Below, in pieces: positions 9,188-13,879 of a DNA stretch of 64,000 nt. Positions within the stretch are counted from its first letter, which is position 1; every line of letters starts with the position of its first letter. The notes beneath the pieces are model-generated. The model did no database searches. It was not told where the DNA came from and worked only from the letters and a program-made list of their open reading frames with translations. The position numbers and the translations under genes were made by a program. Source of the stretch: Dysidea avara (Eukaryota); assembly GCF_963678975.1 (NCBI RefSeq), contig NC_089278.1, positions 6,740,531 through 6,804,530 of the forward strand, read 5' to 3'.

Positions 9188-10159
9188 GTGAGAAGAAGAT
9201 TAGCTGCTTTGTACATTTCTTGTATGATTTAGGGATTTTGTGACTTTGCTACATTGGATAAGCACAGTGTCCAATTGATGCCAAACCAAAGGTGTGTGTG
9301 CATGTGTGCACATACTGTATAGCGGGTTTTTCTCGCGGACAAATTTACTTGCGAAAATAAAATCATGCGACATTACTTAATCTCGCGAGGTGACAGATTT
9401 GCAACATTAAATTCCTTGAGCAAATTTATTACTCGTTGTAATAAGTGTTTACGTATAAGATGGAAAACAACGAAATTTTGTCATGTTAGCCGTATCTATG
9501 CTTGTATCCATGATGAATTTATGCAGGCACCTGAAATGCACCAGGAAACGGATAGGGCGGCCATGTTGGGTTTGCTGAAGAATACAATCCCGGGATCGCT
9601 TAATTCAGGATTGATTTCCGGATTCCTGTAGAATGTGATCCCATAACTATTTACTGAAGAATACGATCCCAAGAGTTTCCTGAAGAATATGATCCTGACG
9701 TAGGCATGCGTTCTGCACGCTTTCATGCATAATTTTTAATTCATTATTTTCGATAGCTCCACCAAAATGCCCCAGACTTACATTGATCCTTGTGTCCTAC
9801 TTATATAGCTACCATTTTAGCTAAAGCTATGGATAATTGATAAAACACGATTATGAGATTTTACCCCTTTGATAAGTGTATATTTCTTTGATTTGTAAAT
9901 TGATGTTATTTGATTGGCTGAATGATGGAAATACATAAAAGTTACACAGTATATACATGTAGTTGCAATCTCTGATATGGTAGTCAAAGACTTAATTACA
10001 GTAGGTCATGGTAGAGGGTATCTTTTGGTGATATCACCAATCATGCTATCATATAATTATGTCCTTCCAAATCTCTCCCTCCACATAAATTCATCAAGAT
10101 ATTCCAGGAGATGGTCGTCACATGTTCCATGCATCCTCTTCAACTTGGCTTTTGCTCTT

Positions 10160-10973
10160 GACCAGTAACTCTCTATATGCTGGGTATGAGTCCCTGTAAT
10201 GGGATCAACAAAGTGAAGACTATGGTTAACTAATGAATGGGTATAGCCTGCTGCAGATATACGAGACTAAGTTGCCCACTCATCCGAATGTACTGTACCA
10301 CTGTCCCTGGATGCACGTATTGTTGTATGATAGGAAGAAGAGTAGCTGGATTTCTTTGAGCCACTAATTGCATGTATCCTGTTGCTGGACGAGTTGAAAT
10401 ATCACACCCATTGTCAGTTTGGAGAGATCTTCCTCTATGGTAGATCTTCCTCTATGAGAGAGATCTTCCTCTATGAGAGAAATCTTCCTCTATGGTTCTA
10501 TGTATAAATACAGCAAATAATATACTGTCAATGATAAGTATCATAACAAAACCTAGCTTTTGGCTTACGTTTGTACAATGACTCATCAACTTGCACAGTT
10601 CAACCTGGATAGTTGGTCTCTTAACAATTTTCAAGAACAGATATCTCTCAGAAAACTGCAGCAATCGATGATGGTATTCTGACTGATGCCAGTAGTTTTG
10701 ATTATCTGCTTTTGTGAAGCATCTGGTGACCACAAAAAAAATTATGTGGAGCCAAATCTGGGAAGCTGGACTGTAATCCCCCTTTGTAGAATTGTACAGA
10801 CAACAACATGAACAGTATTTAAATTTCATACTATGGATTGTCATAGTATCCATGGATACCGTGGATACTCTGACAGAGAGGGTACAACTCTTGTCCGACA
10901 TGTTGGAATAAAAAATAGCCCTAATATCACAGATGCTACCAGTGCTATGGAAGCCCACAATTACTTGAAACAT
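10160..10973 (-). pseudogene. Degenerate DDE transposase of the IS1595/ISXO2-like (Merlin) superfamily, frameshifted. Readable motifs are IDSILF, HSDEWAAY and VGYTHSSVNHSLHFVDPITGTHTQHIESYWSRAKAKLKRMHGTCDDHLLEYLDEFMWRERFG.
   Basis: H.tVNHS..fVd..tG.HTn.IEs.Ws..K and yL.EF.wR are the hallmark of the ISXO2-like DDE domain. The frame is broken. The N-terminal part of ORF 10452..10973 is an out-of-frame overlap. Confidence 0.6.
10425..10495. repeat. Minisatellite of the ~15-bp unit AGATCTTCCTCTATG in about 4 tandem copies. It is present only in unit 1; the other units carry a single copy.
   Basis: Seen directly in the sequence and compared with 26755-26780, 42950-42975 and 58265-58285. Confidence 0.8.
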
Positions 10974-10980
10974 AGATGTA

Positions 10981-10992
10981 TGGGGGGGGGGG
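10981..10992. repeat. Poly-G homopolymer tract. Its length differs between units (27293-27301, 43486-43499, and absent near 58796).
   Basis: Seen directly in the sequence. Confidence 0.85.
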
Positions 10993-11173
10993 GTGTCTAT
11001 TATCTATGCTTGAAATATGAGTGATTGTTTCTATGGTAGCATGTCTGTTTCAGTTGAATGCCGCACCTGTGACATACCGGTAGTCAGTCTAATTATAGTA
11101 TCCTCCATATAAGGATCTTGAAAAATGGGTAACATTGGTAATAAATGTTCGTTACCATGGAAATCACATCCCT

Positions 11174-11181
11174 ATAAATAG
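11174..11181 (+). promoter_or_regulatory. TATAAATA box-like motif upstream of the 440-aa ORF. It lies ~145 bp upstream in units 2 to 4 and ~270 bp upstream in unit 1 because of an insertion.
   Basis: The motif is conserved at 27488, 43676 and 58984. A flanking GGTAAC..GTTACC dyad is present. Confidence 0.3.
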
Positions 11182-11251
11182 AATTAATCGAACCAAAGTA
11201 TCAAGCGGGCCAGCCTCAGGCCGAGTGTTTGTGTGTCTCGGGTGTTTTTGT

Positions 11252-11377
11252 AGTCTCGCGTGGCCAGACGGCTTTTTCTCCACCACGGCGCTTATCGATT
11301 AGAAATTATGAGTGCCTTCGAAAATCTAATCGATAAGCGCCGTGGCGGAGAAAAAGCGGTCTGGCCACGTGAGACTA
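11252..11377. mobile_element. Palindromic (foldback) insertion of 126 bp with a 10-bp direct-repeat target-site duplication GTGTTTTTGT (11242-11251 and 11378-11387). Mutator-like MITE candidate. It is present only in unit 1, between the TATA motif and the ATG of the 440-aa ORF.
   Basis: Arms of ~53 bp with 3 mismatches and a 20-bp loop. The other three units show the empty site GGTGTTTTTGTGAG. Confidence 0.6.
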
Positions 11378-11452
11378 GTGTTTTTGTGAGTCAGTGTGCG
11401 TGTGGTCGGGATTTTCATGTGGCTGGTGTTCGAGTAGTTCATTACTGACGAC

Positions 11453-12775
11453 ATGGTTGAATCTATGAGTTTTTTACCATCAGGCAAGTCATCACATATG
11501 CCTCTGAGTGACTATCGATTGCTGGTAGAAAAGCCGATGCAGCATCCGTTCCATTCTGAATTGATACGAAACTATGAAACTATAGTAAGCTTGGAAACTT
11601 TAGATCGTATAAAGGAATATAATCTTATACAAATGGCAGCGGAAGTAGGTATTAACATTCCCTCAGGTGATAATAATAAGGCAGCAGAAGAAATTTTACG
11701 GAAATGTATTCGTGGTCATAGCTACAAAACAGGCTCTACTTTAAAGATCAAAGGAAGGTCTATCGGTGAACTCCAGCGATGTTACTGTGATCCATGTAAG
11801 AACATGGGAGATGCTTCAGTAACTGATCAAAATGATTCAGATGTTGTATATGTAGAAGTCCATTCTGATACCTTTGTTCACACCGCGAGGAAGACAGTTC
11901 TTTTACTTTTTCATTATATACGCTTGCTTAAATGTTTCGGTGTTACGTGCCCAAAAGTGCATGCCTTTGTGTTCCCTTGCAAAGAAGTTGAACAATGTGC
12001 TGTCCAGGTAACAATGCAGTATGACTCTAGCAAGGTAGAGTTTTGTTATTCTGTTAAGTGTCTACGACTATCAGACATAAGATCAGCATTACAAGGTGCC
12101 TATGAGCAAAACGAAGAAACACTCTCAAATACTGCTAGAAATATTTCTGACAACTACAATCATTATGCTGTTTATCTTACCCAGTTAGAAGTAAATGCCA
12201 TTGCAGCAAATCAAGGTCATGAATACACAAATTGTCGACTAGCCAAATGCTATAATGGAATTTTGATAATGAATGATCGTTATTGTTTGAAAAAGCCACT
12301 GTATCAGATCTCAGTAAAATCACTGATTATTTTATGCTCGATAACAAGTTCATCCTTCATTCATTATACCAGAAAAGAGTTGGGCTTTTTTTCATATGAA
12401 AAAATGCCTTATGGACCATTAACGGACGACAAGGCAAAATCCTGTTGTGCTGAGCTTGTGACAAAAATGGAAAATGTGTTTAATAGCCTTGAAAGTGCAG
12501 GTATTTGCCACTCTGATGTGCGTCTGCCCAACATTTGTTTCAATGATACTTACACTCCAGTATTAATAGATTTTGACTTTTGCGATTTTCAAGCTGATAA
12601 AAAACAAGATATCATAAAATTTGGTTCTGAACTATTGAGATTGTTTCCAGGGGAAGCTAATGATGAATTCATTAAACAACTTGCACAAGGTGACTTTAAT
12701 CAAAGTCTCTTGGCTGGATCAATCATCCAAAGAGGACGTATTACTATAGAGCAAGTGATTGGAGATCGTATGTAA
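11453..12775 (+). CDS. Intronless 440-aa ORF with a protein-kinase-like C-terminal region. GICHSDVRLPNICFN resembles the catalytic-loop HxDxxxxN motif. VLIDFDF follows 11 residues later and resembles the DFG-type metal-binding Asp. The arrangement is APH/choline-kinase-like.
   Basis: The ORF is open in all 4 units. The start has Kozak context gacgacATGG. A TATA-like box lies upstream. The motifs were read by eye; no database search was possible. Confidence 0.5.
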   Translation: MVESMSFLPSGKSSHMPLSDYRLLVEKPMQHPFHSELIRNYETIVSLETLDRIKEYNLIQMAAEVGINIPSGDNNKAAEEILRKCIRGHSYKTGSTLKIKGRSIGELQRCYCDPCKNMGDASVTDQNDSDVVYVEVHSDTFVHTARKTVLLLFHYIRLLKCFGVTCPKVHAFVFPCKEVEQCAVQVTMQYDSSKVEFCYSVKCLRLSDIRSALQGAYEQNEETLSNTARNISDNYNHYAVYLTQLEVNAIAANQGHEYTNCRLAKCYNGILIMNDRYCLKKPLYQISVKSLIILCSITSSSFIHYTRKELGFFSYEKMPYGPLTDDKAKSCCAELVTKMENVFNSLESAGICHSDVRLPNICFNDTYTPVLIDFDFCDFQADKKQDIIKFGSELLRLFPGEANDEFIKQLAQGDFNQSLLAGSIIQRGRITIEQVIGDRM

Positions 12776-13879
12776 CTTTTAGGTAGATTATTTAAAAACT
12801 TCTTAAACACCTGTATTTCTTCTTTGTACTGTGACAATAGTTCTTTAATTGTTGCTTGTAAACTACAAATGGCAAAAAACATGTGATATGATATAAGTAT
12901 GTGATATGGGAGAAGCCTTTTTGTTTTAGTTATTTTTCTAGTATTTGCCTGACATGTCAGAAATGGGTAGTAATGCTGATTGCAACATGTGGGATAAGAG
13001 CTGTATTATGAGAATCAATTGTGGGTTTTAGTTTATGTATCAAAGCTCTTCAATATATCCCTGATATGTCAGAAAAACTTTACTTACTTACGACAAGCTG
13101 GCCACAATGCAAGGTAAATATTGTACATTAATATGTTAGTTGTAAAGCTTTGCATTTCCATGAAATTAACACTTTAGATCCTCTCTGACATGTTGGAATG
13201 AGTCCATAAATTATCAGAATCTAAATCTAGATGTCAAGCATTAAAAAGGTGTAGCTATCAACGAAGAAAGCTAAATTCAACCACGAATGTTGGCAAGAGT
13301 GATTTGTCGAACCACATTAGTAGAACTGTATGTATAAGAAAACAACATCGATATGAACATGAAGACTGACGCTTCTCACTTCCCCCAGCAAAAAAAAAAA
13401 TTCTTCAGGGAACTCTTGGGATTGTATTTTTCAGTAAAGAGTTATGGGATCACATTCTACAGGAATCCGGAAATCAATCCTGAATTAAGTGATCCCAGGA
13501 TCGCATTCTTCAGCAAACCCCAACTGGCTAGCTGTTATGTACATAAACAAGCACCTAGTTCGTTGTTGAATGTTCCAACACAACAGTTTTACAGGGGCTA
13601 AAAACCTAGCAATAAACAAAACTCCACGTGATAAAATATGTTGTGAATTTTAATATTGCAAAGTGCCCAAAACGCAAGATTAAGCCCTCACAATAAAAAC
13701 CTGCTATACGGTATATTGCGTGTATGTGTTGTGAGAGGAGATGGGGGTGGGGGGAGGTGGGTTAGTGTATGTTGTATAGTTTTGTTGTGTGTAGTGTGTC
13801 ATATCACATAACTGTAGAACTCTTTCAGTTAGTTTGGATAAAAGTTTACTGGTTACTGTGCAGGACATTAGAATCAATC

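Follow-up and report, generated by a model that had tools for sequence, protein, structure and literature searches.

In bacterial composite transposons, a gene is bracketed by two inverted copies of an insertion sequence (IS). The Merlin superfamily comprises the eukaryotic relatives of the IS1016/IS1595 insertion sequences, which are characterized, according to the account of Feschotte 2004 given in PMC8101967, by terminal inverted repeats (TIRs) of 24–462 bp ending in GG, a target-site duplication (TSD) of 8–9 bp, and a single gene. Pack-MULE and Pack-TYPE elements are plant DNA transposons that capture genes by transduplication (PMC8903248, PMC13317346). The subject of this analysis is a 3.97-kb cassette of the sponge Dysidea avara, located in a stretch of 64,000 nt (NC_089278.1, positions 6,740,531 to 6,804,530 of the forward strand, assembly GCF_963678975.1; this whole stretch is the window), in which two Merlin-type inverted repeats, here called arms, enclose a dead Merlin transposase and an intronless open reading frame (ORF) of 440 aa with a kinase-like product. 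An earlier note on this DNA had read the ORF as the passenger of one element bounded by the arms, or as a horizontally acquired gene. We assign a probability of about 0.7 to a different reading, in which the cassette was put together from separate pieces and has never been mobile as a whole.

The cassette resembles a bacterial composite transposon in having its gene between inverted IS1595-related sequences whose outward-facing ends are intact, but both flanking copies are incomplete and non-coding, a TSD is lacking, and the arrangement is confined to a single locus. Its likeness to Merlin lies in the DDE_Tnp_IS1595 transposase and in GG-ended TIRs of a length within the published range, and the full-length copies found elsewhere are about 1.7 kb long with a single gene, two of them with an 8-bp TSD. 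The window copy differs in being 5'-truncated and dead, and the arm-bounded region in lacking a TSD and in having an interior that is mostly non-Merlin. The sponge family as a whole also differs in its long ends, which contain 4–5 copies of a 17-bp motif, and in the presence of an intron in the transposase gene. The parts of the cassette in the first of the four tandem units of the window are as follows.

9560–9688, minus strand: left arm, which forms the 3' TIR of the Merlin remnant, with its canonical terminus GGGTTTGCTGAAG starting at 9568.
9568–10761, minus strand: degenerate, 5'-truncated Merlin copy, 82–85% identical to positions 8869–7693 of the full-length copy L007.
10009–10638, minus strand: transposase-coding remnant (PF12762) with frameshifts and stops, in which the D/D/E blocks VQVDES, HSDEW, and HTQHIES are still recognisable.
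10760–13007, plus strand: ORF block, in which the ORF is preceded by 690 bp and followed by about 230 bp, 87–90% identical to the locus L004.
11453–12775, plus strand: intronless 440-aa ORF, with a predicted N-terminal alpha/beta domain (about aa 86–262) and a predicted C-terminal protein-kinase fold (about aa 265–440).
13008–13399, no strand assigned: segment between the ORF block and the right arm, matching none of the fetched loci, with an A-run (13389–13399) at its end that abuts the right arm.
13400–13528, plus strand: right arm, an isolated and inverted 129-bp Merlin terminal fragment, with its canonical terminus ...GCAAACCCC ending at 13521.

The window consists of four tandem units of about 15–16 kb that are 95–98% identical to one another, and the arrangement recurs in all four, as the earlier note had said in describing it as amplified along with the array. 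The units are of two kinds, with units 1 (1932–16876) and 4 (49253–64000) lacking about 1.3 kb that is found in units 2 (16877–33063) and 3 (33064–49259). The comparison material came largely from the ENA sample ERZ25068803, in which a 21-kb stretch (L001) of contig ctg11350l is 99.8% identical to window positions 17658–38968, so that this assembly is taken to be of the same species as the window. Contig ctg11350l carries at least five copies of the ORF, one of them truncated to 253 aa. Outside the array, the inspected part of the genome amounts to about 120 kb, and this is the scope of the comparisons between loci that follow.

The arms proved to be real, with a length of 129 nt each, 91–92% complementarity, and 3711 nt between them, and the window has exactly four such pairs, one in each unit (in units 2–4 at 25919/29586, 42116/45763, and 57422/61082). 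The subterminal repeats that had been noticed in them correspond to a 17-bp motif, CTGAAGAATACGATCCC, which has 28 matches in the window at up to three mismatches, every one within the eight arms, where 0.08 would be expected by chance; in the left arm it is present as CTGAAGAATAYGATCCC, four times in direct and once in inverted orientation. These motifs are probably transposase-binding sites. Both arms begin GGG(G)TTTGCTGAAG, as do the ends of the four full-length copies, and with this 5'-GG end and their length they fall within the published description of Merlin TIRs. The transposase on the minus strand was likewise borne out as a dead member of the superfamily by the profile search that the earlier note had proposed, in which PF12762 (DDE_Tnp_IS1595) matched with E=1.8e-13 and 51.2 bits against a cut-off of 27. 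A tblastn comparison with a 303-aa relative (P0011) places the remnant at about aa 89–303 of that protein, spread over three frames, and every frame has at least two stops in all four units. The description of this transposase as frameshifted is correct for the frameshifts and stops themselves, but part of the apparent shift is a short intron that is also present in intact copies. Judged from the sequence, the Merlin identity of the repeats and the remnant is confirmed, because the IS1595-type DDE domain, the GG-terminated TIRs, the single gene, and, in the full-length copies, the 8–9-bp TSD make up the published definition.

The full-length copies provide the reference against which the cassette can be read. 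A search with the conceptual transposase retrieved a cluster 89% identical to the query, with 13 variants on at least 12 contigs, and three full-length copies of about 1.73 kb were found in ERZ25068803 (L007, positions 7137–8872; L011, 5425–7152; L012, 5120–6854), with a mutual identity of about 93.5%. A fourth copy (L008, 1359–3122) is from a JGI metagenome and is not necessarily from the genome of the window. All four, at 1.73–1.77 kb, have ends that read GGG(G)TTTGCTGAAGAATACGATCCCGGGATC... and contain the 17-bp motifs, as in the window arms, and in the full-length copies the paired ends extend for about 250 nt. L007 is flanked by the TSD AAGTACAC (8/8 matching) and L011 by TCCTAGTT/TCCTAGGT (7/8 matching). 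Removal of a 58-nt GT..AG intron (7907–7964) from L007 gives an uninterrupted transposase of 298 aa that is collinear with the 303-aa relative, and from its sequence a family of the L007 type may still be active in the sponge. The same ends thus occur elsewhere, with 8-bp TSDs at L007 and L011, and they do so as ordinary Merlin copies and not as unrelated miniature inverted-repeat transposable elements (MITEs), but the ORF does not travel with them: the 440-aa ORF block lies neither inside nor beside any of the four full-length copies. Next to the full-length copy L012, there is an abutting 65-bp inverted Merlin terminal fragment (6855–6919), which means that isolated end stumps beside Merlin sequence occur elsewhere in the genome too.

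Alignment with L007 shows that the window copy lacks the first ~556 bp of the element, in which the 5' TIR and the codons for about 88 aa of the transposase would lie, with the breakpoint at L007 position 7693. The positions at which Merlin homology stops in units 1–4 (10761, 27040, 43232, and 58541) coincide to within a few nucleotides with those at which homology to L004 begins (10760, 27044, 43231, and 58545). The region 10761–10960 had been considered as the N-terminal part of the transposase, and was rejected on the basis of the L007 comparison, which ends Merlin homology at 10761. From 10760 to 13399 the interior is non-Merlin, so that the arms do not enclose a single transposase gene as in a Merlin element. 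At the other side, Merlin homology ends inward at 13400, and the match covers only the terminal 122–129 nt. L004 is a second locus of the same genome, on contig ctg11856l, and holds a frameshifted copy of the ORF, a pseudogene; within this locus of about 21 kb, Merlin ends, the 17-bp motif, and a transposase were all looked for and not found. The 10760/10761 junction reads ...GTGGAGCCAAATCTGG|GAAGCTGGACTG..., where Merlin continues ...CTTCTGGAGG and L004 has ...GAACCGGGAAGCTGG, with microhomology of 2–3 nt. L004 extends about 19 nt of non-Merlin sequence upstream beyond the junction point, which means that the L004 copy cannot derive from the chimera in the window. In L004, the initial ~155 bp of the block occur twice (8670–8827 and 9344–9500), 674 bp apart, and both copies begin 19 nt upstream of the Merlin-junction point.

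The earlier note had found no TSD, and none was found around the arms in any of the four units, where the flanks are GCCATGTT / AACTGGCT, 3/8 matching and identical in all units. A wider terminus starting at 9558–9560 was also considered, and likewise gives no TSD. The inverted repeat continues for about 8 nt past the canonical terminus, with GCCATGTT facing the reverse complement AGCCAGTT (5/9 matching ungapped, 7/8 with one gap), which is expected for an inverted duplication of one end together with its flank and not for the two ends of a single insertion; this is a weak, post hoc observation, with P estimated by us at roughly 0.01–0.05. Both arms share two derived states that are absent from L007, L011, and L012, namely GGATTCC for GGACTCC and CTTAATT for TATAATT. 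These do not discriminate between the readings, because both ends of L011 and of L012 likewise share copy-specific variants, that is, sub-lineage signatures.

From these observations, the history of the composite was probably as follows. The piece at 9568–10761 is an old, dead, 5'-truncated Merlin copy. The piece at 13400–13521 is a single inverted Merlin terminus that belongs to the same sub-lineage and is unlikely to be the opposite end of the insertion that left the first piece; it may have arisen when the left end was duplicated in inverted orientation along with a few flank bases, or it may be the stump of a second copy. The piece at 10760–13007 is a 2.25-kb DNA copy of a host gene, probably from a donor like L004, more likely copied into, or next to, the broken Merlin, to which it was joined by end-joining or template-switch repair across the 2–3 nt of microhomology. 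All of these pieces were joined before the tandem amplification of the 15–16-kb unit. The A-run at 13389–13399 and the variable 5' ends led to a retrocopy origin of the ORF block being considered. The match to L004 stops about 380 bp short of this A-run, and a TSD was not observed.

The ORF is open in all four units, as had been reported, at 440, 440, 439, and 440 aa in units 1–4. Its description as kinase-like is supported by profile and by predicted fold, and on these two grounds we consider the kinase likeness confirmed. An initial search gave eight relatives and was superseded by an exhaustive profile search, which recovered 1241 clusters at E<=1e-3, 533 at E<=1e-10, and 99 at E<=1e-30, mostly of 400–530 aa. 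In an alignment of 54 of these sequences K280, D355, R357, N360, and D373 are invariant and H353 is nearly so, and these are the residues expected of a kinase, with a beta3 lysine, an HxDxRxxN loop, and a DFD motif. In the window ORF they lie in a compact C-terminal kinase fold (K280, H353-x-D355, N360, D373-F-D), and they are intact in all four array copies. A structure model from the 54 sequences, which replaced a poor model from nine sequences (predicted local distance difference test score, pLDDT, of 60), predicts a bilobal kinase fold. The product is probably an active kinase, since all of the catalytic residues are present in a minimal kinase domain. Named models match weakly: the window ORF is below the curated cut-offs for APH (19.2 bits, cut-off 23.2) and Pkinase (14 bits, cut-off 31.7), and among the 54 members there are weak matches to Pkinase in 31 (best E=5.8e-8) and to Kdo in 20. 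PADLOC and NCBIfam returned generic catalytic-loop matches only, with those of NCBIfam far below their cut-offs. In comparison with minimal or atypical kinases, such as RIO1/RIO2, Bud32, the archaeal Ark1/TkArkI, and Kdo kinase, the family is distinguished by the fact that all named Pfam and NCBIfam models are below threshold, by DFD or DLD instead of DFG, by a conserved N-terminal domain of ~175 aa, fused to the kinase and assignable to no Pfam family, and by named members that are so far from demosponges only. No report of this kinase-like family was found in the literature.

The N-terminal domain of about 175 aa is conserved across the family with the pattern PD-x(13)-E-V-x-S...K, and in the window ORF it spans aa 86–262 (nt ~11708–12238). 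D120 and E135 are nearly invariant, as is K147 in the 54 sequences, and K147 is invariant in an N-terminal alignment of 26 sequences. The motif sits on predicted strands 119–124 and 130–136, followed by a helix at 141–161, and the lysine at the canonical PD-(D/E)XK position is not conserved. Pfam matches are single and weak (HSDR_N_2 at 0.0054, HSDR_N, and MmcB-like) and include no convincing family, and a profile of the domain had no match in the PDB. The PD-(D/E)XK core consists of alpha-beta-beta-beta-alpha-beta with Asp at the start of beta2 and (D/E)xK in beta3. The pattern of the domain resembles such a nuclease core, and a restriction-endonuclease-like fold is a lead, not a result.

The named members of the family are an 'uncharacterized protein' of Dysidea avara and a hypothetical protein of Ephydatia muelleri, and the others are from ENA, JGI, and Logan assemblies, some of whose source samples are presumably sponge holobiont metagenomes. 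A paralogue on ctg11856l (P0299) falls into a cluster, at 90% identity or more, with Dysidea avara RefSeq proteins such as XP_065892363.1. The window ORF itself is not among the named NCBI or UniRef proteins in the collection, and its cluster (P0001) has ENA sources only and five members, all on the array contig. Eight other family loci were inspected (L002, L003, L004, L005, L006, L009, L010, and L013, representing about six distinct places), and at each the gene is the only long ORF, in DNA of eukaryotic appearance, with neither a Merlin transposase nor Merlin ends at any of the eight.

The four copies also allow the selection on the ORF to be considered. Between units, the pairwise ratio of nonsynonymous to synonymous rates (dN/dS) is 0.69–1.15, and the corresponding ratio of proportions (pN/pS) is 0.98 for aa 1–90, 0.51 for aa 91–265, and 0.98 for aa 266–440. 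Amino acid changes cluster at the N terminus, at aa 285–299, and at aa 378–408, and the catalytic motifs and the N-terminal core are unchanged in the four copies. Per site, substitutions are at least as numerous in the coding sequence (CDS) as in its flanks. There are no nonsense mutations among at least 83 substitutions (simulated P=0.025), and the 1323-bp CDS has a single indel, of 3 bp and in frame, against 21 in 2535 bp of adjacent non-coding and Merlin flanks. By our own Poisson estimate about 11 indels would be expected in the CDS (P ~2e-4), a value that is approximate because the flanks hold more indel-prone simple sequence. Intact frames combined with a near-neutral rate of amino acid change suggest selection for a protein that is intact but diversifying or relaxed; the pattern fits a functional protein under such selection and is less compatible with pseudogenes.

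The evidence that carries the composite reading is that full-length Merlin copies of the same genome, 1.73 kb long and with the same ends, lack the ORF, that the ORF cluster is on one contig and the Merlin cluster on at least 12, and that no second locus with arms plus ORF was found among the four Merlin copies and eight ORF-family loci, a result that is provisional for a partially sampled genome. Several points weigh against it. The arms are in the correct inverted orientation, with intact GG termini and several motif copies each, and they share two derived substitutions as the two ends of one element would; gene capture by gap repair would also yield a microhomology junction; the reading does not account for the source of 13008–13399 or for the join between the block and the right arm; and with only ~120 kb inspected outside the array a second chimeric copy could exist. 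An alternative is a Pack-type Merlin, in which the interior of an element was replaced by a copy of the kinase gene through abortive gap repair or template switching, to give a non-autonomous, TIR-bounded chimera that brought the gene here or that is still mobilisable in trans by an intact transposase. Such a chimera could account for the intact termini and subterminal motifs on both arms with their common sub-lineage-specific substitutions, for the microhomology at the Merlin/gene junction, and for a parental-type gene copy elsewhere (L004), and a transposase that appears intact is encoded in the same genome. Pack-type elements, too, have DNA of host origin enclosed by TIRs of a known family. 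Pack elements typically carry gene fragments, and the window differs in carrying a complete open gene with its upstream region. It differs further in having no second copy and no sign of movement, with the ORF cluster only in the array and L004 free of Merlin, and in lacking an 8–9-bp TSD in every unit where two of the three full-length copies of the same genome have one. One of its 'TIRs' is a stump of 129 bp against paired ends of about 250 bp in the full-length copies, and the overshoot of about 8 nt past the terminus fits an inverted duplication better. We therefore regard a Pack-type origin as rather unlikely, and it is slightly less probable still that the arms and interior constitute a nascent 'Pack-Merlin' with a complete, selectable host kinase gene that can be mobilised in trans.

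The composite reading also takes the ORF to be a host gene, and this can be set against its acquisition from a virus or bacterium, arriving with or near the transposon, which would fit an intronless ORF in an intron-rich region, the lack of an above-threshold match to a named kinase family, and weak best matches that include bacterial Kdo kinase and APH. The named family members are, however, in two demosponge orders, with several paralogues in this genome, the contexts of all inspected homologues are eukaryote-like with no neighbouring long ORFs, the G+C content of the ORF (0.367) is close to that of the window (0.386), and a pattern-based scan of viral contigs gave no relatives; horizontal acquisition is thus highly improbable. 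The other half of the earlier proposal, the ORF as passenger of a single arm-bounded element, is not supported in view of the sister copies without the ORF, the Merlin cut at 10761, the Merlin-free L004 block, and the missing TSD. A separate question is whether the ORF copies are decaying or non-functional duplicates whose frame is open only through the youth of the array. The dN/dS values of about 0.7–1.15 between units would also fit non-functional copies and thus count against a functional reading, as does a substitution density in the CDS that is at least that of the flanks, and the second locus, L004, is a pseudogene, while the ORF is missing from the named NCBI and UniRef proteins of the collection. 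Set against this are the absence of nonsense changes, the single in-frame indel, the catalytic Lys/Asp/Asn/Asp and N-terminal core unchanged in 4/4 copies, and the pN/pS of 0.51 in the central region, and on balance we consider decay unlikely, as a minority possibility.

Three further features of the cassette lie within or next to these pieces.

10422–10499, no strand assigned: 19-bp tandem repeat GAGAGATCTTCCTCTATG in four copies, at the start of transposase exon 2, expanded in unit 1 only.
11171–11181, plus strand: TATA-like box CCTATAAATAG, conserved in all four units.
11251–11377, no strand assigned: MITE of 127 bp with 53-nt TIRs (TAGTCTCGCGTGGCCAGAC...) and a 9-bp TSD, GTGTTTTTG, at 11242–11250 and 11378–11386.

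The TATA-like box upstream of the ORF had been pointed out previously and is retained in every unit, at 154 nt from the ATG in units 2–4 and at 282 nt in unit 1, where the longer distance is due to the insertion of the MITE. The MITE is present in unit 1 only, between the box and the start of the ORF, with an empty site in units 2–4 and in L004, and it was inserted after the amplification of the array. Relatives of it are found at L007 9209–9283 and, in a different assembly (ERZ25069711), in L005 and L006 around 15022–15119. Elsewhere in the window, the plus strand has short open stretches at about 17083–17232 and 18902–19090 that give a WD40-like peptide and a weak match to the DENN domain (E=0.005, below cut-off), and a multi-exon host gene of the DENN/WD40 type seems to have been amplified, in part or in full, with the unit. 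A foldback segment of about 370 bp, ~85% paired, is present in three units (21129–21518, 37342–37714, and 53767–54153) and was not detected in unit 1. A (CA/TG)n microsatellite occurs in units 1–3 (7340–7406, 22545–22633, and 38741–38829) and has further matches among the microsatellites of L005. Neither an Rfam family nor a tRNA was detected in scans that covered the window in full.

The locus is a cautionary case, in that an intact gene lying, with a transposase remnant, between inverted repeats mimics a cargo-carrying transposon, where comparison with sister copies points to an ordinary element whose stumps surround a host gene that was duplicated separately. As remnants of a known superfamily around a duplicated host gene, the cassette is of low novelty in itself. 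A Pack-Merlin, if it were true, would to our knowledge be the first whole-gene capture by the Merlin superfamily in an animal, and no report of gene capture by Merlin was found in the literature. Two by-products are of more general interest. One is a possibly active demosponge Merlin family with defined ends, 8-bp TSDs, and an intron-containing transposase. The other is a large, uncharacterised family in which an N-terminal domain, possibly nuclease-like, is fused to a minimal kinase, and in which the array copies change freely in amino acid sequence without acquiring stops or frameshifts; this behavior resembles that of fast-evolving recognition or defence genes, and it may serve as a lead, rather than a demonstrated function, to what these proteins do in the sponge.

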